Below are positions 5,882 through 43,021 of a DNA stretch of 44,547 nt, piece by piece. Within the stretch, counting starts at the first letter, position 1. The number at the start of each line of letters is the position of its first letter. The DNA comes from Candidatus Sungbacteria bacterium RIFCSPLOWO2_01_FULL_54_21. Lineage in GTDB: Bacteria; Patescibacteriota; Minisyncoccia; Sungbacterales; HO2-52-23. A program made the position numbers and the translations under genes. The stretch lies in NCBI GenBank assembly GCA_001820725.1, contig MHQR01000037.1, positions 1 to 44,547 on the forward strand, given 5' to 3'. The notes beneath the pieces are model-generated. The model did not search any database. It saw nothing but the letters and a program-made list of their open reading frames with translations, and was not told where the DNA came from.

Positions 5882-6289
5882 ATGAAAGAAGGGATTTTAT
5901 CTGAAGAAAAATTGCGCGCGCTGGGCGTAGGCGTTGTGTATCTGTTTGGCTCGCGCGCCGAGGGCGTCGCAGGGCCTGCAAGCGATATTGATGTCGGCGT
6001 GCTGTTCACGGATTCCACGACTGCGCGCGGCAACACAACAGAAGTATATGGCGCCCTCTATGACATTTTTTGCGATGCATTCGACATGAGTAATTTTCGG
6101 ACGATTGACATAGTATTTCTTGAGCGCGCGCCGCTTGAACTGCAATTTGACGCCATTTCGCACGGCAGAGCGCTTTTTGAAATTTCTTCGGATTTCCGCC
6201 TTGATTTTGAAGAGCGCGTCTCGGCGCTCTATCGGGATTTCAAGCCGCTTCTTTTAGAGCAGAATGCGGCGATTCTTCAACGGATATGA
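5882..6289 (+). CDS. minimal nucleotidyltransferase (MntA-type antitoxin)
   Basis: 'LFGSRAEG...SDIDVGV' and downstream 'IDIV' Pol-beta motif. Confidence 0.88.
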   Translation: MKEGILSEEKLRALGVGVVYLFGSRAEGVAGPASDIDVGVLFTDSTTARGNTTEVYGALYDIFCDAFDMSNFRTIDIVFLERAPLELQFDAISHGRALFEISSDFRLDFEERVSALYRDFKPLLLEQNAAILQRI

Positions 6290-6750
6290 AACGGATTCCG
6301 TTAAAAAATCAGTCCATTCTTCCTCGCATTGACGGGATTATGAAAGATCTGGTAAAGCTTCGCGAGATTGCATCATTGCCGCAAGAAGAATTTTCCGATA
6401 TGCAAAAAGATTATTTTGATGTTGCAAAATTGCGTTTGCGCGAGGCGCTGGAGGGGGTCTTTAACATAGGCGCGCATATTCTCTCCCGTATGGAAGGCGG
6501 CCGCACCACGGCATATAAAGAAATTGCCAAGAAATTGGGTGAATTTGGGATTGTGGAAAAAGATTTCGCGGATGGCGCCCTTATGCGCATGGCCGGGTAT
6601 CGCAACCGCCTCACGCATTTTTATGCGGATGTCCCCGCCGCAGAAGTTTATAAGGTTTTACATGAACATCTCGGCGATTTTGATGCTTTCCTTTCCGCTA
6701 TCAAGCGGGTTTTAGAACACCCGGAGAAGTTCGAATTATCAGTAGAATAA
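6286..6750 (+). CDS. HEPN/DUF86 RNase toxin (HepT-type)
   Basis: 'RNRLTHFY' RxxxxH motif; ATGA overlap with MNT gene. Confidence 0.88.
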   Translation: MKRIPLKNQSILPRIDGIMKDLVKLREIASLPQEEFSDMQKDYFDVAKLRLREALEGVFNIGAHILSRMEGGRTTAYKEIAKKLGEFGIVEKDFADGALMRMAGYRNRLTHFYADVPAAEVYKVLHEHLGDFDAFLSAIKRVLEHPEKFELSVE

Positions 6751-21397: not shown

Positions 21398-22087
21398 ATG
21401 GCTAAGTTCGAAAAGAGGTTGGAAGCCCGTGCGTTGAGAAGAAAGGGATGGAGTATCCGCTCCATTGCCTCACATCTTGGGATCTCTCGTGCTTCGTCAA
21501 GCGTTTGGTGCAGCGATCTACAGCTTACTCAGCGCCAAAGTGATCTTCTTTTTAAGAATGCCGTGCAAGCGGGCCATGTGGGAAGAATGAAAGGCGCTCT
21601 TGCGAATCGTCAGAAAAAAGAAGCAGCTATCGCGTCCTATAAGGAAGCGGGGCAGAGGGAAATATCAGCGCTTTCTTTTCGGGAAGTGCTGTTAACGGGA
21701 GTTGCGCTTTATTGGGCGGAAGGAAGCCGGAAAAGCAAGTTTGCGTTCACTAATTCAGAACCGGCAATGGTCGCATTCATGGCTTATTGGCTGGAACATA
21801 TATTTGGGATCAAGAAAGAGGAGTTTATGCCGCGTATCTTCATCAACGCCATCCACGAGCCGCGCATCAGAAAAGTTGTACGGTTCTGGTCTGATTTTTT
21901 GGGCGTATCGGTGCGTCAGTTCGGAAAGCCCGTACTCTTGAAGGGCAGGCCGAAGAAGATATATGAAAACCATGAGCATTATTACGGCGTATTAGCTCTC
22001 GGCGTGCGAAGGAGCGGGAATCTGAAATATCGCGTCTTGGGTCTTATTGATGCGCTGAAAAGTGCCGAAAAAATTTCGCCGGCGTAG
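21398..22087 (+). CDS. HTH + LAGLIDADG-like putative endonuclease ending inside tRNA-Met
   Basis: N-terminal HTH 'RRKGWSIRSIASHLGISRASSSVW'; 'GVALYWAEGS...FTNSEP' resembles a LAGLIDADG helix. Confidence 0.6.
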   Translation: MAKFEKRLEARALRRKGWSIRSIASHLGISRASSSVWCSDLQLTQRQSDLLFKNAVQAGHVGRMKGALANRQKKEAAIASYKEAGQREISALSFREVLLTGVALYWAEGSRKSKFAFTNSEPAMVAFMAYWLEHIFGIKKEEFMPRIFINAIHEPRIRKVVRFWSDFLGVSVRQFGKPVLLKGRPKKIYENHEHYYGVLALGVRRSGNLKYRVLGLIDALKSAEKISPA

Positions 22088-22150
22088 CTCAGTGGTTAGA
22101 GCGATCGCTTCATAAGCGATAGGTCGCAGGTCCAATTCCTGCCGCCGGCA
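22078..22150 (+). tRNA. tRNA-Met(CAU), probably elongator (Ile2 not excluded)
   Basis: GCCGGCG/CGCCGGC acceptor, ATCGC-TTCATAA-GCGAT, T loop TCCAATT. Confidence 0.9.
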
Positions 22151-34358: not shown

Positions 34359-34406
34359 AGTAATAATGTCTGTTCTCTTTGCCAAGAATGTGATATGCTT
34401 TGACGC

Positions 34407-34835
34407 ATGGAGATGTTTTCTTTCAGCGAAAAAGAAAAAGAAATATTACACAGCGCCGGCATTGAGGCGCTCGTGCTTTTTGGCTCGCGTGCGCGAGGCA
34501 CCGAGGGATCCGCTTCCGATTTTGACGTGGGGGTTTTATTTGGTGCGGGACACGTTCTCGTGCCATCGGATACCCGCACCCGCGTATACAATACGCTTTA
34601 CGATCTGCTGTCTCTGCATGCCGGGCGCGCAAGACCGATGGCGGACATTGATATCGTATTTCTGGGGAGCGCCCCCATGGAACTGCAATCGCATGTTGCC
34701 ACGCACGGCGTCTCAATATATGAGGAGCATCCGCTCGCGTTCGCGCGGTTCCGGGAGCGCGTCATGGATGTCTATGCGGATTTCGCTCCTTTGCGGCGTA
34801 TCTTTCACGAGGCCATTTTGGCGCGCATCCCATGA
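34407..34835 (+). CDS. minimal nucleotidyltransferase (MntA-type antitoxin), copy 2
   Basis: 'LFGSRARG...SDFDVGV', 'IDIVFL'. Confidence 0.88.
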   Translation: MEMFSFSEKEKEILHSAGIEALVLFGSRARGTEGSASDFDVGVLFGAGHVLVPSDTRTRVYNTLYDLLSLHAGRARPMADIDIVFLGSAPMELQSHVATHGVSIYEEHPLAFARFRERVMDVYADFAPLRRIFHEAILARIP

Positions 34836-35296
34836 CCGCGCATACTCTTGAAAAAGACGTGGTTGTCAAGCGCATCAACGGCATTCAGAAAGAATGCGCG
34901 GCGCTTGTGCGTTTGGGGACGACGCCGTTTGATGTATTCAACGACGAAGACGGCACAGCATTCCAGCTTGCCCAGTATCATCTGCATCGCGCTTTGGAAG
35001 GCGTATTCCATATCAGCGCGCACATCCTGTCGCGTATACCCGGAGGGCAGGCCACGCAATATCGCGAAATGGCGCGGAAAATGGGCGAATACGGCATCGT
35101 TGATAAAGCGTTTGCCGGCACGAAGCTCGTGGACATGGCGCGATACCGCAATCGCCTCGTCCATTTCTATGCCGAGATCACGCCGCCGGAACTCTATGGC
35201 ATTTTACAAGATGATCTTGGCGACTTTGAAACTTTTCTACACGCCGTGAAGCGGGTACTAGAGCATCCGGAGCAATTCGGTCTGGCAGTCGAATAA
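34832..35296 (+). CDS. HEPN/DUF86 RNase toxin, copy 2
   Basis: 'RNRLVHFY'; ATGA overlap. Confidence 0.88.
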   Translation: MTAHTLEKDVVVKRINGIQKECAALVRLGTTPFDVFNDEDGTAFQLAQYHLHRALEGVFHISAHILSRIPGGQATQYREMARKMGEYGIVDKAFAGTKLVDMARYRNRLVHFYAEITPPELYGILQDDLGDFETFLHAVKRVLEHPEQFGLAVE

Positions 35297-35440
35297 TCTG
35301 CATTTACAAAGCGAAAACAATACGGGAGCACCGGAAGCGCGACAGCAAGCTTCTGCGCCGCATAGCTGTTATTGGAAAGAAAATTCTTGGGTGTGGAAAG
35401 GCGAGGTCTTTTTTGACGCCGATGTGCTATAATACTCGCA

Positions 35441-36535
35441 ATGATACGCGAACGGATCGTACAATGGGCTGATCACTTTATCCGCCTGCCGGTGGTGGGG
35501 CTGGATATTTCCGATCGTAGCATAAAATACGTGAAATTCTCTGCAGGCCGGAGCGGGCAAATAGAATCGTTCGGCGAAAAAGAAATTGACGAAGGCGTCA
35601 TCGTGGAAGGCCGCATTGAACGTCCAGCCGATTTTGTCTCTGTCCTTCGCGCCCTCTCCTCGCTCTTGGGACGGTGGTGGTCGCCTATGGGCGTCGTCGC
35701 ATCTCTGCCGGAGGAAAAAAGTTTTTTGCGCCTTGTGCAATTGCCCGATGTAAAGCCCGCCGAGGTGGCGGGTGCTCTGCGGTGGCAGATCGAAGGCCAG
35801 ATTCCTTTGCCTGCCGAAGACCTTGCCTATGATTACGAGATCATCGAGTCCCTTGTCAGTCGTCCCGAGCACTTGGATGTCGTGATCACTGCATACCCAA
35901 AGACAATCGTAGATGCGTACATCAGCGCGCTCAAGGAAGGAGGATTTCAGCCCGTGGCGCTTGAGCTGGAATCCCAGGCAATCGCGCGCGCGGTGCTCGG
36001 CGGCGAGCGCGCGCCCGACGCGACTGCAGTCGTAGATATGGGGCGCAACCGCACGACTATTGCCATGTGCGCGGCGGGCTCGGTGATTTTTACCGCGACC
36101 GTGCCTGTCGGTGGACGTATGTTGGAGCAAGAGATCGCAAAAGCTCTCGGCGTGGATATGGCGGCGGCGGATCGCCTGAAAAAAGAGCACGGGCTGATTC
36201 CTGGCGCTTATGAGGGAAAAATCTTCAGAGCAATCCTGCCTACGATGGAGATGATTACCGGCGAGCTTGGCCGCACTATAGCGTATTATGAAGATCACAT
36301 TTCCCATATTCATGGCGGCACGCCGGAAGTCAGGCGGGTGCTGATGTGCGGAGGAGATGCCAACCTGTTCGGCTTGGATACATACCTTTCCTCGCGCGTG
36401 CGCGTTCCGGTTTCAATTGCCGATCCTTTTTACGGCATTGCCGCCGAGTCGCCGTATCCCATACCCGAAATTCCGCGCCGCGAGGCGGTTGCCTTTGCCG
36501 CGGCTATTGGTCTCGCGCGCCGCATAACCGCATAA
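35441..36535 (+). CDS. pilM: second PilM
   Basis: 'GLDISDRSIKYV', 'VDMG', 'CGGDANL'. Confidence 0.9.
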   Translation: MIRERIVQWADHFIRLPVVGLDISDRSIKYVKFSAGRSGQIESFGEKEIDEGVIVEGRIERPADFVSVLRALSSLLGRWWSPMGVVASLPEEKSFLRLVQLPDVKPAEVAGALRWQIEGQIPLPAEDLAYDYEIIESLVSRPEHLDVVITAYPKTIVDAYISALKEGGFQPVALELESQAIARAVLGGERAPDATAVVDMGRNRTTIAMCAAGSVIFTATVPVGGRMLEQEIAKALGVDMAAADRLKKEHGLIPGAYEGKIFRAILPTMEMITGELGRTIAYYEDHISHIHGGTPEVRRVLMCGGDANLFGLDTYLSSRVRVPVSIADPFYGIAAESPYPIPEIPRREAVAFAAAIGLARRITA

Positions 36536-37094: not shown

Positions 37095-37663
37095 CCTTCA
37101 CGACCTTGCGCATACCGGCACGGTATACATTTGTCGCGGTTTCCGTCGTCGCTCTTGCCGCGGTCGGGATTGCCGCATGGGGCTTTGCGCAGGCCATTGC
37201 CATCGTATGGCAAGGCCATGCCGCGCAAGCCGAGATCAGGCAGAACATCGGTGTGCGTGCCGAGGAACGCCAAAGCGCCCGGGCATCCGAAGTACTGCTC
37301 CGCAACCGGCAGGAGGACATCCGCCGCATCGGCGCATTTTTTGTGCCGCGCCATGGCCCCATCGCCTTTATCGAGGCGGTTGAATATGTCGCCAGTCGGA
37401 CGGGCAACACGATCTCTCTGGATATAGACGAAAACGTCGGCGGCGAGCGCGCACTCCGTTTCCGCCTCACGGTAGAAGGCGGGGCAAACGGCCTGGTGGA
37501 TTTTATGCGCGCGGTGGAGCTTCTGCCGTACAAGATTGATATACAAGATATGGTATTTCAAGATACATCGCCTGCGGGCGGCGCATTGCCGGGTAAGACG
37601 CCGTCGGTGCGGCGGGAAGCACCTGCGCGGCTTCTCTTATCCCTCGATGTCAGCGCTCGCTAA
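37091..37663 (+). CDS. second PilO-like protein
   Basis: TM plus 'VEG...FMRAVELLPY'; follows pilN. Confidence 0.7.
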   Translation: MTFTTLRIPARYTFVAVSVVALAAVGIAAWGFAQAIAIVWQGHAAQAEIRQNIGVRAEERQSARASEVLLRNRQEDIRRIGAFFVPRHGPIAFIEAVEYVASRTGNTISLDIDENVGGERALRFRLTVEGGANGLVDFMRAVELLPYKIDIQDMVFQDTSPAGGALPGKTPSVRREAPARLLLSLDVSAR

Positions 37664-37670
37664 TATCCCT

Positions 37671-37997
37671 ATGTCCTCACTTTTTTCAAAATCACTCTCC
37701 CTGTGCACCGGCTTTCGCGCTTCTTCGTTCAAACGCAACACGGTCATTTTTAGCATCGTCGTGTTTCTGGGGATGTTGGCGCTGGCGTTGTTCGCCATAG
37801 ACGGATATGCGCTGTATCTCTCGCACTTTGCCGAACCCGCGCCCGTACTGCCACTGCGCAATACGCCCCAGCTCTCTACCCAGGATATTGACGGCACGCT
37901 TAAACTCCTCGACGAACGGGAGAAAAAGATGCGAGCATTGTTCGGTGAAGAAATAAAACTACCCTCGGAGGGAATCGAACCCCCATCAAGACCTTAG
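37671..37997 (+). CDS. small membrane protein; 3' end overlaps tRNA-Arg antisense
   Basis: Single TM; last gene of pilMNO2 run. Confidence 0.6.
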   Translation: MSSLFSKSLSLCTGFRASSFKRNTVIFSIVVFLGMLALALFAIDGYALYLSHFAEPAPVLPLRNTPQLSTQDIDGTLKLLDEREKKMRALFGEEIKLPSEGIEPPSRP

Positions 37998-38031
37998 AAG
38001 AGTCCTGCTTTATCCATTAAGCTACGAGGGC
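37960..38031 (-). tRNA. tRNA-Arg(UCU)
   Basis: GCCCTCG/CGAGGGT, GGACT-CTTCTAA-GGTCT, GGGGG-TTCGATT-CCCTC. Confidence 0.92.
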
Positions 38032-38333
38032 TTTGTTCTGCCAAAACACTGGAGCTGTATATACGTCTTTCGTCTATGGCAATTAGCGCAACGAATTTCG
38101 CACTTTTTCATCTCTTTCTCCAAGGCATTCCAAGAGTAATGTCCTGACAACATTTTCGAAATTGACTTGAATTTTTTCTGCGGAATGCTGTGGTCAAATT
38201 CAAGAACTATAGGATCTCTTTCTCCGCAATCAACACATGCCTTTGCAGATAAAAATGCCAACAATCTTCCCCGTATTCTGATACGGTGTCTTTTTTGGGC
38301 GGCGTAAAGGTCTTCTCGACGTTTGTAGGGCAT
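38022..38333 (-). CDS. HNH endonuclease-like protein ending inside tRNA-Arg
   Basis: 'CVDCG...LEFDH...KCEIRCANCH' zinc-finger HNH; ATG 6 nt after TATAAT. Confidence 0.8.
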   Translation of the reverse strand: MPYKRREDLYAAQKRHRIRIRGRLLAFLSAKACVDCGERDPIVLEFDHSIPQKKFKSISKMLSGHYSWNALEKEMKKCEIRCANCHRRKTYIQLQCFGRTKPS

Positions 38334-38393
38334 GTCAGGATTATATCGCACGATTCTAACCCTGTCTATGACCATATGCGTCAGAGGCGAATA

Positions 38394-39695
38394 TTATTTT
38401 CTGAAGTATTCTCTCAATTTTTCCCGCGGGACTTCTTTCTGCTCGCGGGTTCTGGCGTTTTTGATGCTCACGGTTCCTCTCTTTTGTTCCTCCTCACCGC
38501 GAATAATGACGTACGCCATTTCTTTTTTCAGCGCGTACGCAAGCTGTGCCTGAAAAGAGAGGTCATCGCCGAGATAGATGGAGCAGGGGATGCCCGAAGA
38601 ACGCACTTCCTGCGCCATTGTCAGATATTCCGCTTCGGCGTTGGGAATGAGGGCGAGAACGAGCGCTCCGGATGAGGAGCGCTCGGCTCCAGATGAGCGC
38701 GTGGTCGCGGCGGGTTTGATATCGAGCCGTTCGAGTCCCGCGATCAGGCGGTCTACGCCGAGTGATACGCCGACAGCCGGTATTTTCTGCCCGGTAAAAG
38801 ACATGACCAGGTCATCATACCTGCCGCCGCCAAAGACCGAGCCGATTTCTTGGACATCCGTGAGGATCGTCTCAAACACGGGGCCGGTGTAGTACGACAG
38901 GCCGCGCACCAGCGAGCGGTCAATGCGCCAGTAGTTCTCCTCAATGCCCATCGCGTTGAGTGCCGCGGCAATCTCGGCGAGCGTGCCGATTGTTTCCGGT
39001 GGAGAAGCAAGGAACGCCATAATTTTTTCAGTCGGCTCTTTGCCGAATTCTTTTTGTAATTCGTCGGCGATGCCAGATTTTCCGATTTTGTCCAGTTTAT
39101 CAATGATGCGCAAAGCCGCCCAGAGCTGTTCTGGAGGAAATCCGGCGAGAACGGGAAGTACCTCCAATTCTTTGCGGTCGGCGATCTTGATGATGAATTT
39201 TTCAATGCCGAGCGCGCGGAGCGTCGCATACATCACGGCAACAATTTCGGCGTCTGCAGATGGCGTGCCGGCGCCGACAATATCCGCATCCGCCTGTGTG
39301 AATTCGCGGTATCTGCCGGCCTGCTGGCGCTCGCCCCTCCACACGCGGCCGATTTCGTAGCGCTTGAAGGGACGGGGAATGTCGGGGTTGGCGGCGACAA
39401 ACCGCGCGAGCGGTACCGTGAGATCGAAACGAAGGGACGTGTCGCTGGTCTCCTCTTTGTCCTGTGATCCGCGCACGTTGAAGATAATCTTTTGCGAATC
39501 CTCCTCGCCTCCGGTCAATACTTCGGTGCGTTGCACCGCGCTCGTTTCCAACGGCTCAAAGCCGAAACTCTCAAATGTCCGGCGCGCCGTATCCAGAATC
39601 CATTGTTTTACCCGCGCATCGCGAGGCGCATAGTCGCGAAACCCGCCCGGAAGATCTGGTTTTACTCTCTCTTTCAGTGGATTGTTTTCGGTCAT
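38394..39695 (-). CDS. hisS: histidine-tRNA ligase
   Basis: 'GFRDY', 'LRFDLTVP', 'GRYREFTQ', 'RGLSYYTG', 'GGGRYD'. Confidence 0.96.
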   Translation of the reverse strand: MTENNPLKERVKPDLPGGFRDYAPRDARVKQWILDTARRTFESFGFEPLETSAVQRTEVLTGGEEDSQKIIFNVRGSQDKEETSDTSLRFDLTVPLARFVAANPDIPRPFKRYEIGRVWRGERQQAGRYREFTQADADIVGAGTPSADAEIVAVMYATLRALGIEKFIIKIADRKELEVLPVLAGFPPEQLWAALRIIDKLDKIGKSGIADELQKEFGKEPTEKIMAFLASPPETIGTLAEIAAALNAMGIEENYWRIDRSLVRGLSYYTGPVFETILTDVQEIGSVFGGGRYDDLVMSFTGQKIPAVGVSLGVDRLIAGLERLDIKPAATTRSSGAERSSSGALVLALIPNAEAEYLTMAQEVRSSGIPCSIYLGDDLSFQAQLAYALKKEMAYVIIRGEEEQKRGTVSIKNARTREQKEVPREKLREYFRK

Positions 39696-39739
39696 TGCCT
39701 GTACGTTAGCATGTAATATATACGGGTTCAATTCCGCGC

Positions 39740-39764
39740 AAAATGAAACCCCTCGTGAGAGGGG
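39740..39764 (-). terminator. attenuator terminator
   Basis: CCCCTC-TCAC-GAGGGG-TTTCATTTT. Confidence 0.8.
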
Positions 39765-39801
39765 GCTGTCTTGATGCCTTGGTAAAATCGGGAAAGAAAT
39801 T

Positions 39802-42696: not shown

Positions 42697-42725
42697 TATA
42701 CAATTGTATATAGTTAACTATATAC
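42697..42725. promoter_or_regulatory. overlapping palindromes (putative operator) over a TACAAT -10 box
   Basis: TATACAATTGTATA (42697-42710) and GTATATAGTTAACTATATAC (42706-42725). Confidence 0.5.
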
Positions 42726-42731
42726 GGTCAA

Positions 42732-43021
42732 CCCCCACACCTAATTTGCTTATGTTTTACACCTACCTAATCAAAAGTAAAAAGGATGGTGAGCTGTATA
42801 TTGGCTCTACCGATAATTTACGAAGGAGATTTCAGGAACACAACAAAGGGCTGAATCGCTCTACAAAATACAGAATTCCGTTTGAGCTTGTCTATTATGA
42901 GGCATATAAATCAGAAAAAGACGCAAGAGATAGAGAGCATAACTTAAAGTTGAGAACGAATGCATTGAATCAATTAAAGCGAATAATCACTAAAAGCCTC
43001 AAAGCAAATTAGGTGTGGGGG
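42732..43021. mobile_element. 290-bp element with 20-bp perfect TIRs carrying a GIY-YIG gene, TCAA duplication
   Basis: tcaa-CCCCCACACCTAATTTGCTT...AAGCAAATTAGGTGTGGGGG-tcaa. Confidence 0.78.
42752..43012 (+). CDS. standalone GIY-YIG nuclease (86 aa)
   Basis: 'YTYLIKS...LYIGST.NLRRRFQEHN...ARDRE'. Confidence 0.9.
   Translation: MFYTYLIKSKKDGELYIGSTDNLRRRFQEHNKGLNRSTKYRIPFELVYYEAYKSEKDARDREHNLKLRTNALNQLKRIITKSLKAN

Follow-up and report, generated by a model that had tools for sequence, protein, structure and literature searches.

A putative homing-type HNH endonuclease cassette flush with the tRNA-Arg(UCU) gene of a Candidatus Sungbacteria genome

Organization of the tRNA-Arg(UCU) locus

The window analysed here is a stretch of 44,547 nucleotides (nt) from Candidatus Sungbacteria bacterium RIFCSPLOWO2_01_FULL_54_21 (contig MHQR01000037.1, positions 1 to 44,547). 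Its subject is an open reading frame (ORF) for a small HNH endonuclease, probably the payload of a homing-type cassette, which runs on the reverse strand into the 5′ end of the gene for the transfer RNA tRNA-Arg(UCU). The source genome, G000, comprises 767 kb in 37 contigs and is 99.6% complete; it carries type IV pilus genes, an ATP-dependent DNA ligase and toxin-antitoxin pairs, a gene content typical of the ultra-small bacteria of the candidate phyla radiation (CPR).

In the direction of transcription, the locus begins with hisS, which encodes histidyl-tRNA synthetase (38394..39731, −; Pfam tRNA-synt_His at 2.4e-38 and HGTP_anticodon at 3.2e-11). The HNH endonuclease ORF follows, with 103 amino acids (aa; 38022..38333, −, stop TAG counted in; PHROG 2255), and lies within the longer frame given by the mechanical ORF listing (38022..38375, −, stop included). 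The third gene is tRNA-Arg(UCU), with anticodon tct (37960..38031, −; ARAGORN; Rfam tRNA at 66.2 bits). The gap between hisS and the tRNA is 362 nt and is occupied by the HNH cassette. The ORF and the tRNA overlap by 10 nt (38022..38031, −): the last base of a Lys codon, a Pro and a Ser codon and the TAG make up tRNA positions 1–10. The stop at 38024-38022 is thus at positions 8–10 of tRNA-Arg(UCU), as the sequence-only reading of this DNA had placed it, and ARAGORN, the ORF coordinates and the sequence agree on this point. Error-free contigs from public sequencing runs cross the HNH-tRNA junction.

The HNH gene is present in one copy in G000. The tRNA-Arg(UCU) gene is likewise the only copy found there, the sole other match to its sequence being tRNA-Arg(cct). 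A search of positions 37850-38460 against Rfam returned tRNA-Arg and no further RNA family, and no other phage genes flank the locus in the Pfam annotation of the window. Genes for ribonuclease P (RNase P) RNA (156 bits) and for transfer-messenger RNA (tmRNA) are both present in G000.

The HNH protein

Three PHROG families, all annotated as HNH endonuclease, match the protein, in score order 2255 (5.9e-21), 3106 (2.2e-17) and 4234 (5.1e-13). In an alignment of 59 sequences, C33, C36, C82, C85, D47, N84 and H86 do not vary and H48 is conserved in at least 90%, so that the residue pattern CxxC...CxxC plus D-H...N-x-H is retained across the family, the four cysteines being the presumed zinc ligands. 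The AlphaFold2 model has a mean predicted local distance difference test score (pLDDT) of 88.6 and shows strands at residues 44-48 and 78-82 followed by a helix at 83-94. A sequence search of the PDB gave no match for the HNH protein, the NCBIfam search returned nothing useful, and Foldseek against the PDB returned nothing at E <= 0.001 for this model or for that of a second, 229-aa ORF of the window that is discussed below. The close relatives of the protein carry Parcubacteria, Paceibacterota or Patescibacteria names.

tRNA partners of the HNH family

A pattern search with one genome per species yielded 74 HNH-family genome loci. The stop codon lies inside a same-strand tRNA in 42 of them, and in another 18 the tRNA starts 0–50 nt after the stop, 60/74 in sum. 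At nine loci the tRNA is no more than 150 nt away but differently arranged (one touching the stop, one with the contig end 44 nt after the stop, one with a 78-nt gap, and six convergent). The tRNA is further off in 3/74 and there is none in 2/74, one of the latter ORFs being cut by the contig end. The 30 metagenome loci comprise 8 with the stop inside a tRNA, 5 with a tRNA at 50 nt or less, 8 with another geometry within 150 nt, 8 with a tRNA far off or none, and one that is cut. As background, 12 of the 2035 mechanical ORFs of at least 100 aa in G000 end no more than 50 nt short of a same-strand tRNA or up to 40 nt into it. Set against this, the 60/74 HNH loci indicate that adjacency to tRNA genes is not due to chance; the HNH relatives are not independent of one another, yet at least 10 different tRNA partners occur among them.

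The junction found in G000, with its 10-nt overlap, recurs in 20/32 genome loci of the Arg(tct) type and in 5/6 metagenome loci. Of the remaining genome loci of this type, 7/32 have their stop 5–38 nt before the tRNA and 5/32 elsewhere inside it.

A maximum-likelihood tree of 70 proteins and 113 columns, obtained by a quick search that leaves many inner forks open and from which L082 (an over-long ORF) and L045 (a pseudogene) were excluded, groups the sequences by tRNA partner. The Arg(tct) clade has 33 rows (support 99) and the Arg(tcg) clade 7 rows (support 98), an eighth Arg(tcg) row, L054, falling outside its partner clade; further groups are Gln(ctg), with 8 rows, and smaller Lys, Pro and Gly groups. 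Each HNH clade keeps one tRNA partner. The upstream neighbour, on the other hand, varies: hisS is upstream in only 1/34 Arg(tct)-type genome loci, which ties the cassette to the tRNA and not to the upstream gene.

A different HNH gene, about 31% identical, occurs at loci L004 and L005 (genomes G008 and G006), with its ATG 1 nt after the 3′ end of tRNA-Tyr(gta), that is, with the nuclease downstream of the tRNA.

Start codon, promoter and left-end box

A promoter-like site, TAGACA-17 nt-TATAAT (38340..38368, −), has 11/12 sigma-70 matches and ends 6 nt before the HNH start codon, with TAGACA at 38368-38363, TATAAT at 38345-38340 and the ATG at 38333. The promoter scan of the region gave 5 promoter-like sites versus 1.0 ± 1.0 in shuffled sequences, and this site was the best. 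The proteins of relatives begin with M/V-P/A-Y exactly at the 38333 start, not at the upstream ATG at 38375. Likeness at the DNA level to the corresponding locus of G022, a genome of another genus in the same family, starts about 45 nt upstream of the HNH ATG and includes a 7-nt gap in the alignment. Both hexamers, a 17-nt stretch around the first hexamer and the ATG are identical in the two genomes, and the spacer partly differs. Since the gap is not a multiple of three and the spacers differ, the conservation is that of DNA signals, not of an N-terminal extension.

The same arrangement was counted over 38 cassettes of the Arg(tct) type. A −10-like hexamer lies 4–8 nt before the start in 33 of them and exactly 6 nt before it in 29, a TGn extension is present in 27, and the start codon is ATG in 29 and GTG in 9. 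The left end of the cassette is marked by a conserved box, GGGTTAGAAT (38353..38362, −), whose exact core GGTTAGA occurs in 33/38 cassettes and together with the promoter in 31/38. The box stands 8 nt from the −10 hexamer, too close for a canonical −35 element. The sequence GTTAGA followed 8–11 nt on by a TAnAAT hexamer has a single occurrence in G000, at the HNH cassette.

Two other explanations of the box were tried and rejected. A general promoter element of G000 was discarded because the combination of box and −10-like hexamer is unique in the genome, and a reading of TTAGAA as the reverse complement of the anticodon loop TTCTAA because a 6-mer match is too likely by chance. At L097, a locus of G054 that has no HNH gene, GGGGTAGAAT, five bases and GGTATTCCC are found about 27 nt before tRNA-Arg(tct) and resemble the box and −10 hexamer of the cassette. 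This look-alike, seen only in L097 among the HNH-less tRNA-Arg(tct) upstream regions inspected by eye, may have been left behind by a cassette since lost, or may be a native promoter of this kind.

The position of the −10 hexamer predicts an HNH transcript that would be leaderless or nearly so. TATAAT followed 5–7 nt later by ATG or GTG is found at 45 sites in G000, which makes leaderless starts plausible there and suggests that leaderless mRNAs could be widespread in this organism. One such site in the window (35425-35443) consists of TGCTATAAT, 7 nt and the ATG of a gene of the Pfam PilM_2 family at 35441.

The earlier description of the ORF as sitting between a promoter and the tRNA needs one change. 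The TATAAT 6 nt before the ATG stands, but the promoter does not look like the tRNA's own, because it travels with the HNH gene across lineages with differing upstream neighbours and because the tRNA of relatives follows hisS too closely for a separate promoter. The ORF brought its promoter along rather than slipping in behind an existing one.

Insertion, distribution and age

The locus was compared in 12 relatives that lack the HNH gene, as the sequence-only reading had suggested. In all of them hisS and tRNA-Arg(tct) are present without the cassette, hisS standing directly before the tRNA on the same strand: hisS ends inside the tRNA in 3, and in the others the distance from its stop to the tRNA is 0–4 nt (4 relatives), 10–35 nt (4) or 114 nt (1). 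The corresponding gap, 362 nt in G000, is 400 nt in G022, and both hold the cassette. The ancestral state in the family is therefore hisS followed at once by tRNA-Arg(tct). Over 70 nt, the tRNA-Arg(UCU) of G000 shows no difference (100% identity) from the tRNA of G009 and G026, two genomes that lack the HNH gene.

Vertical fixation of the HNH gene, named beforehand as the finding that would speak against a parasite of tRNA leaders, is not what the genomes show. A close homologue, with 75% identity, was found in G022 alone among 60 relatives; the gene is present in 2/36 genomes of the family, G000 included, and an Arg(tct)-type HNH (E <= 1e-25) in 3/400 other genomes sampled across the class, in three different families. 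Between G000 and G022 the HNH protein is 75% identical versus 59% for hisS. Another genome of the same genus as G000, G003, has an HNH protein of the Gln clade, 40% identical; the start of its gene follows a TAAAAT hexamer by 6 nt, and the stop, a TAA, falls within tRNA-Gln at positions 13–15.

The median ratio of nonsynonymous to synonymous substitution rates (dN/dS) is 0.11 in the 74 of 528 pairs that have measurable dS, and the HNH protein is under purifying selection. A decaying copy is also on record: the Arg(tct)-type HNH at L045 (DASWFI010000101.1) has an in-frame stop near codon 20 and neither the box nor the −10 hexamer, and is still flush with the tRNA.

Leftover tRNA halves and mode of entry

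At 4/16 loci of sister clades, the stretch immediately upstream of the cassette promoter retains an old copy of the partner tRNA (z 5.5–10.8), which covers positions 1–38, 1–38, 7–38 and 10–35. The partners of the clades with such leftovers are tRNA-Gln, tRNA-Arg(tcg) and tRNA-His, in each case with an intact tRNA downstream of the cassette, and the tRNA-His locus L159 keeps tRNA positions 1–39 upstream with a z of 16.5. These duplicated tRNA halves look like an insertion scar. At these loci the cassette follows position 38 of the old 5′ half and has a new 5′ half at its right end. A new tRNA 5′ half carried by the cassette would explain both the flush ORF-tRNA junction and the fidelity of each clade to one tRNA. 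A plausible route of entry is a break in the anticodon loop repaired from a donor, with the tRNA as the sole homology. The Arg(tct) clade may have entered in this way too, with a scar that has since decayed, or directly in front of the tRNA.

At the locus of G000 the spacer at 38388-38351 has a likeness to tRNA positions 1–38 when read by eye, but was rejected as a leftover of them, the local and end-free global alignments versus shuffled sequences giving z values of −0.5, 0.17 and 0.08.

Four HNH-less loci (L099, L100, L113 and L118) have a duplicate of tRNA-Arg(tct) positions 1–35 to 1–47 at a distance of 16–78 nt upstream of the intact tRNA (z 8.7–25). A short non-coding insert separates duplicate and tRNA, and in L099 it has an extra copy of positions 1–10. 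These duplicates may be scars or miniature relatives of anticodon-loop insertions.

Stop codons inside tRNA genes and the companion ORF

A stop inside a tRNA is in itself an ordinary event in this genome. TAG is found at positions 8–10 in 18/32 tRNAs of G000, and tRNA-Arg(UCU) stops all three frames, at positions 8, 13 and 36; HNH relatives in the other two frames stop exactly there. The caveat of the sequence-only reading, that any ORF running into a tRNA meets this TAG in one frame of three, is borne out, as every frame stops inside the tRNA and the TAG is common. Four ORFs of at least 100 aa in G000 end inside the 5′ part of a tRNA: the HNH ORF, the 229-aa ORF, and the pair L140 and L141, composed of an alpha/beta-hydrolase ORF (DUF1749, 2.5e-15; C1 33091-34113), which ends at positions 13–15 of tRNA-Pro(ggg), and a 199-aa ORF without family match (C36 1691-2290), which ends at positions 8–10 of tRNA-Thr(tgt). 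The hisS stop itself is inside tRNA-Arg(tct) in 3/12 HNH-less relatives (L092, L102 and L104, in G009, G029 and G023), as a TAG at about positions 8–10 in two and a TAA at positions 13–15 in one. Overlap of protein and tRNA genes is normal in this bacterial family, and its occurrence in hisS and other genes indicates that the stop inside the tRNA reflects tight packing.

Tight tRNA-gene-tRNA packing is also seen at an amino-acid-kinase-family ORF (PF00696; 22150-22893, +), possibly a UMP kinase. Its longest frame, with a putative start, shares its first base with the last base of tRNA-Met, and 16 nt separate its end from tRNA-Asp.

The companion ORF of 229 aa (21398..22087, +) combines a helix-turn-helix with a probably LAGLIDADG-like part, and its TAG is at positions 8–10 of tRNA-Met(cat) at 22078-22150. 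Pfam recognises in it only the N-terminal helix-turn-helix, with no nuclease match. In 18 sequences, Y105 and E108 of a LYWxEG motif are invariant, L104 and G109 are kept in at least 90%, and G197 is invariant. The AlphaFold2 model has a pLDDT of 88. Foldseek with this model gave no significant match and the PDB sequence search gave noise only. VIA-align of the C-terminal domain gave Z scores of 7.3 for WhiA, 7.1 for I-DmoI (20% identity), 6.9 for the TliVMA endonuclease domain and 6.2 for I-Vdi141I, within a full range of 5.8–7.3 and below the safe level of 8. The ORF is thus likely to be LAGLIDADG-like.

This second family has 3 places in G000 and matches, some of them broken, in 32/61 genomes. 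Sixteen of 20 loci abut or overlap a tRNA (6 end inside it, 2 run through it and 8 stop 3–16 nt before it), and the partners include Met, Lys, Gln, Trp, Ile, Gly and Arg(cct); the second copy in G000 stops 7 nt before tRNA-Glu(ctc). The earlier suggestion that two nucleases share one layout and hence a recurrent strategy therefore stands in part. Both families are systematically found at the 5′ side of tRNA genes, but the layout is not specific to nucleases, being shared by hisS, the alpha/beta-hydrolase and the ORF of unknown family. As a statement about gene families stationed on the 5′ side of tRNAs, the idea of a recurrent strategy is upheld.

The window has a third nuclease of homing type in the vicinity of tRNAs, a GIY-YIG ORF of 102 aa (42704-43012, +; Pfam 8.8e-18; PHROG homing endonuclease). 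It lies on the downstream side of the tRNA-Arg(cct)/tRNA-Ala pair at a distance of about 620 nt, and an unassigned ORF of 151 aa is found in between. The window further includes a nucleotidyltransferase/HepT pair (5882-6750) and, behind an unassigned ORF (34366-34851), a second HepT-like gene (34832-35296); these HepT-type genes (5882-6750 and 34366-35296) are inside or beside two pilus gene clusters.

Interpretation of the HNH cassette

We propose, with a probability of about 0.6, that the HNH ORF is the payload of a selfish, free-standing homing-type cassette, made up of the box, the promoter and a leaderless nuclease gene and set flush with the 5′ end of tRNA-Arg(UCU). Of the features that characterize homing endonucleases, presence or absence at one locus among relatives and a position beside a conserved target gene are seen here. 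The HNH protein would cut or nick DNA at or near cassette-free copies of the partner tRNA gene, and repair from the cassette-bearing copy would spread the cassette, with the tRNA gene as homology arm. From the cassette promoter, one transcript would serve as both HNH mRNA and tRNA precursor, so that the insertion, as proposed, does not silence the tRNA. An ORF without its own stop would run on to the first stop of the tRNA, the conserved U8-A9-G10, and the stop inside the tRNA would simply follow from the flush junction. By cutting at tRNA position +1, RNase P would remove the stop codon; a non-stop HNH mRNA is the likely consequence, and its handling by tmRNA would keep the nuclease level low. 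The presence of RNase P RNA and tmRNA makes a non-stop HNH message mechanistically possible.

Several observations weigh against this proposal. Cleavage, homing and transcription of the cassette are all steps that we infer from sequence. The Pfam family HNH (PF01844) is matched at 0.0012 with 19.4 bits, below the cut-off of 21.4, and the top Foldseek rows for the model (Gme HNH, Cap5, GVE2 HNH and Cas9) are weak, with E >= 0.55. A leftover tRNA 5′ half (z >= 3) was found in 0/32 Arg(tct) genome loci and in 0/4 testable metagenome loci. The tRNA target of the HNH-less G009 and G026 is identical over 70 nt, so that no difference in immunity is visible. Synonymous sites are saturated in 454/528 pairs, which makes the sampled copies old residents, with no recent transfer seen. 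The contigs of four public DNA runs contained no cassette-free allele of the same strain over 37600-39800, a result that does not prove its absence; one 202-nt skip in these contigs has a shorter side of 22 nt with 80% likeness and most likely comes from another organism. The public runs listed included none of RNA. The GTG start in 9/38 cassettes fits leaderless translation poorly. A second promoter-like site, with 9/12 matches, lies inside the HNH ORF (38233-38206), and this site and read-through from hisS could be further feeds of the tRNA.

The persistence of the gene could also be that of a domesticated or ordinary host gene, such as a DNA repair nuclease or a factor for tRNA expression, inherited vertically, often lost and co-transcribed with the tRNA through compactness. 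Strong purifying selection and very old divergence agree with this, as do the single copy in G000, with no within-strain presence/absence polymorphism seen in the four public runs, and the overlap of non-nuclease genes with tRNAs in G000 and relatives. Nevertheless we consider a host gene unlikely, as the HNH gene is found in about 1% of the genomes sampled across the class (3/400) and is missing from relatives whose tRNA shows no difference over 70 nt, every clade has a tRNA of its own while the upstream neighbours vary, and the closest named relatives are phage HNHs in tRNA arrays; the duplicated tRNA halves flanking the sister clades and the decayed copy at L045 argue in the same direction. 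The junction could instead be a regulatory device, in which translation into the 5′ part of the tRNA, or removal of the stop by RNase P, couples the supply of tRNA-Arg(UCU) to translation and the identity of the nuclease is secondary. The same junction in 20/32 Arg(tct)-type genome loci, the presence of RNase P RNA and tmRNA, and the compact promoter-ORF-tRNA unit would suit such a device. The overlap, however, is not required, since 7/32 loci stop 5–38 nt before the tRNA and 5 elsewhere inside it; hisS overlaps the tRNA likewise in relatives, and conserved catalytic residues would be needless in a mere leader peptide. To a regulatory role we accordingly give little credence.

That the HNH gene and the tRNA arrived together, as the remnant of a phage or prophage tRNA array, is suggested by relatives in phage and mycobacterial tRNA arrays (PMC5966550, PMC6582537). 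It is nonetheless very improbable: the tRNA is the only tRNA-Arg(UCU) found in G000, shows 100% identity over 70 nt with its counterpart in HNH-less relatives and stands in the ancestral position after hisS, and no other phage genes flank the locus. An unrelated small ORF that happened to run into the tRNA would meet the TAG at positions 8–10 in one frame in three, but the family counts (60/74 loci versus 12/2035 ORFs) refute chance, to which we assign a negligible probability.

A homing-type cassette thus remains our preferred reading of the HNH ORF, and a broader one can be built on it tentatively. Ultra-small CPR bacteria may possibly harbour a guild of endonuclease cassettes that are unrelated to one another, represented in the present genome by an HNH and a LAGLIDADG-like type, each colonising one essential tRNA gene without the need for an intron. 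Such cassettes would enter at or in the tRNA gene, bring a promoter and in some clades fresh tRNA positions 1–38, and become the transcription unit of the tRNA, hard for the host to delete, with RNase P and tmRNA as a self-limiting switch. On the homing reading, a phage-type strategy is found in bacterial chromosomes, in genomes of 0.7 Mb, at essential tRNA genes present in a single copy, with one tRNA per nuclease clade and two unrelated nuclease families doing so in one genome. It would be a case of a selfish gene that persists very long in a streamlined genome by providing an essential gene with its promoter, and the amount of its own product may be held down by RNA processing. For annotation, ORFs that overlap tRNA 5′ ends in these lineages should be taken as real genes, and such small enzymes may be a source of nucleases that recognise tRNA-gene sequences.

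Comparison with known systems

Free-standing homing endonucleases beside tRNA genes are textbook knowledge for phages such as T4. A literature search with limited reach into subscription journals turned up papers on phage and mycobacterial tRNA arrays and on T4 SegB, but none that describes HNH or LAGLIDADG genes lying flush against tRNA genes of the chromosome in CPR/Patescibacteria. Fungal mitochondria have mobile ORFs in which an endonuclease ORF enters a gene and carries a replacement for the displaced gene end. The sister clades are alike in this respect, with an old copy of tRNA positions 1–38 upstream and an intact tRNA downstream, whereas the Arg(tct) clade differs in having no detected leftover.

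The SegB protein of T4 is a free-standing GIY-YIG homing endonuclease of the T4 tRNA cluster; its recognition site includes a conserved tRNA T-arm motif, and it promotes its own inheritance along with that of the tRNA genes next to it (PMC2330249). SegB resembles the HNH ORF as a free-standing nuclease gene lodged among tRNA genes and offers a working model for the cassette. It differs in being GIY-YIG and not HNH, in its phage host, and in that its cleavage and homing are shown by experiment, while for the HNH cassette they are proposed from sequence comparisons.

The phage relatives of the HNH protein amount to 177 records, all with less than 60% identity. Among them, gp102 of mycobacteriophage PegLeg was recovered by tblastn at 1e-13, with 37% identity over 96% of the query. 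Its coding sequence ends at position 10 of a tRNA-Met in a tRNA array, and a second HNH gene of PegLeg ends 3 nt before tRNA-Tyr. In Streptomyces phage Paradiddles the HNH relative lies between two tRNA-Thr genes, and in Stenotrophomonas phage ANB28 about 1.1 kb separate it from the closest tRNA. HNH genes are also reported to be the commonest coding sequences of mycobacterial tRNA arrays, where they are read as homing endonucleases (PMC5966550, PMC6582537). The HNH genes of mycobacteriophage and mycobacterial tRNA arrays (PegLeg gp102, PHROG 2255/3106) are thus like that of G000 in protein family and in the stop-in-tRNA layout. The gene of G000, in contrast, resides in a bacterial chromosome, at a lone, essential, single-copy tRNA after a housekeeping gene and not in a mobile multi-tRNA array; its cassette has a conserved promoter and box, and its clade is bound to a single tRNA identity.

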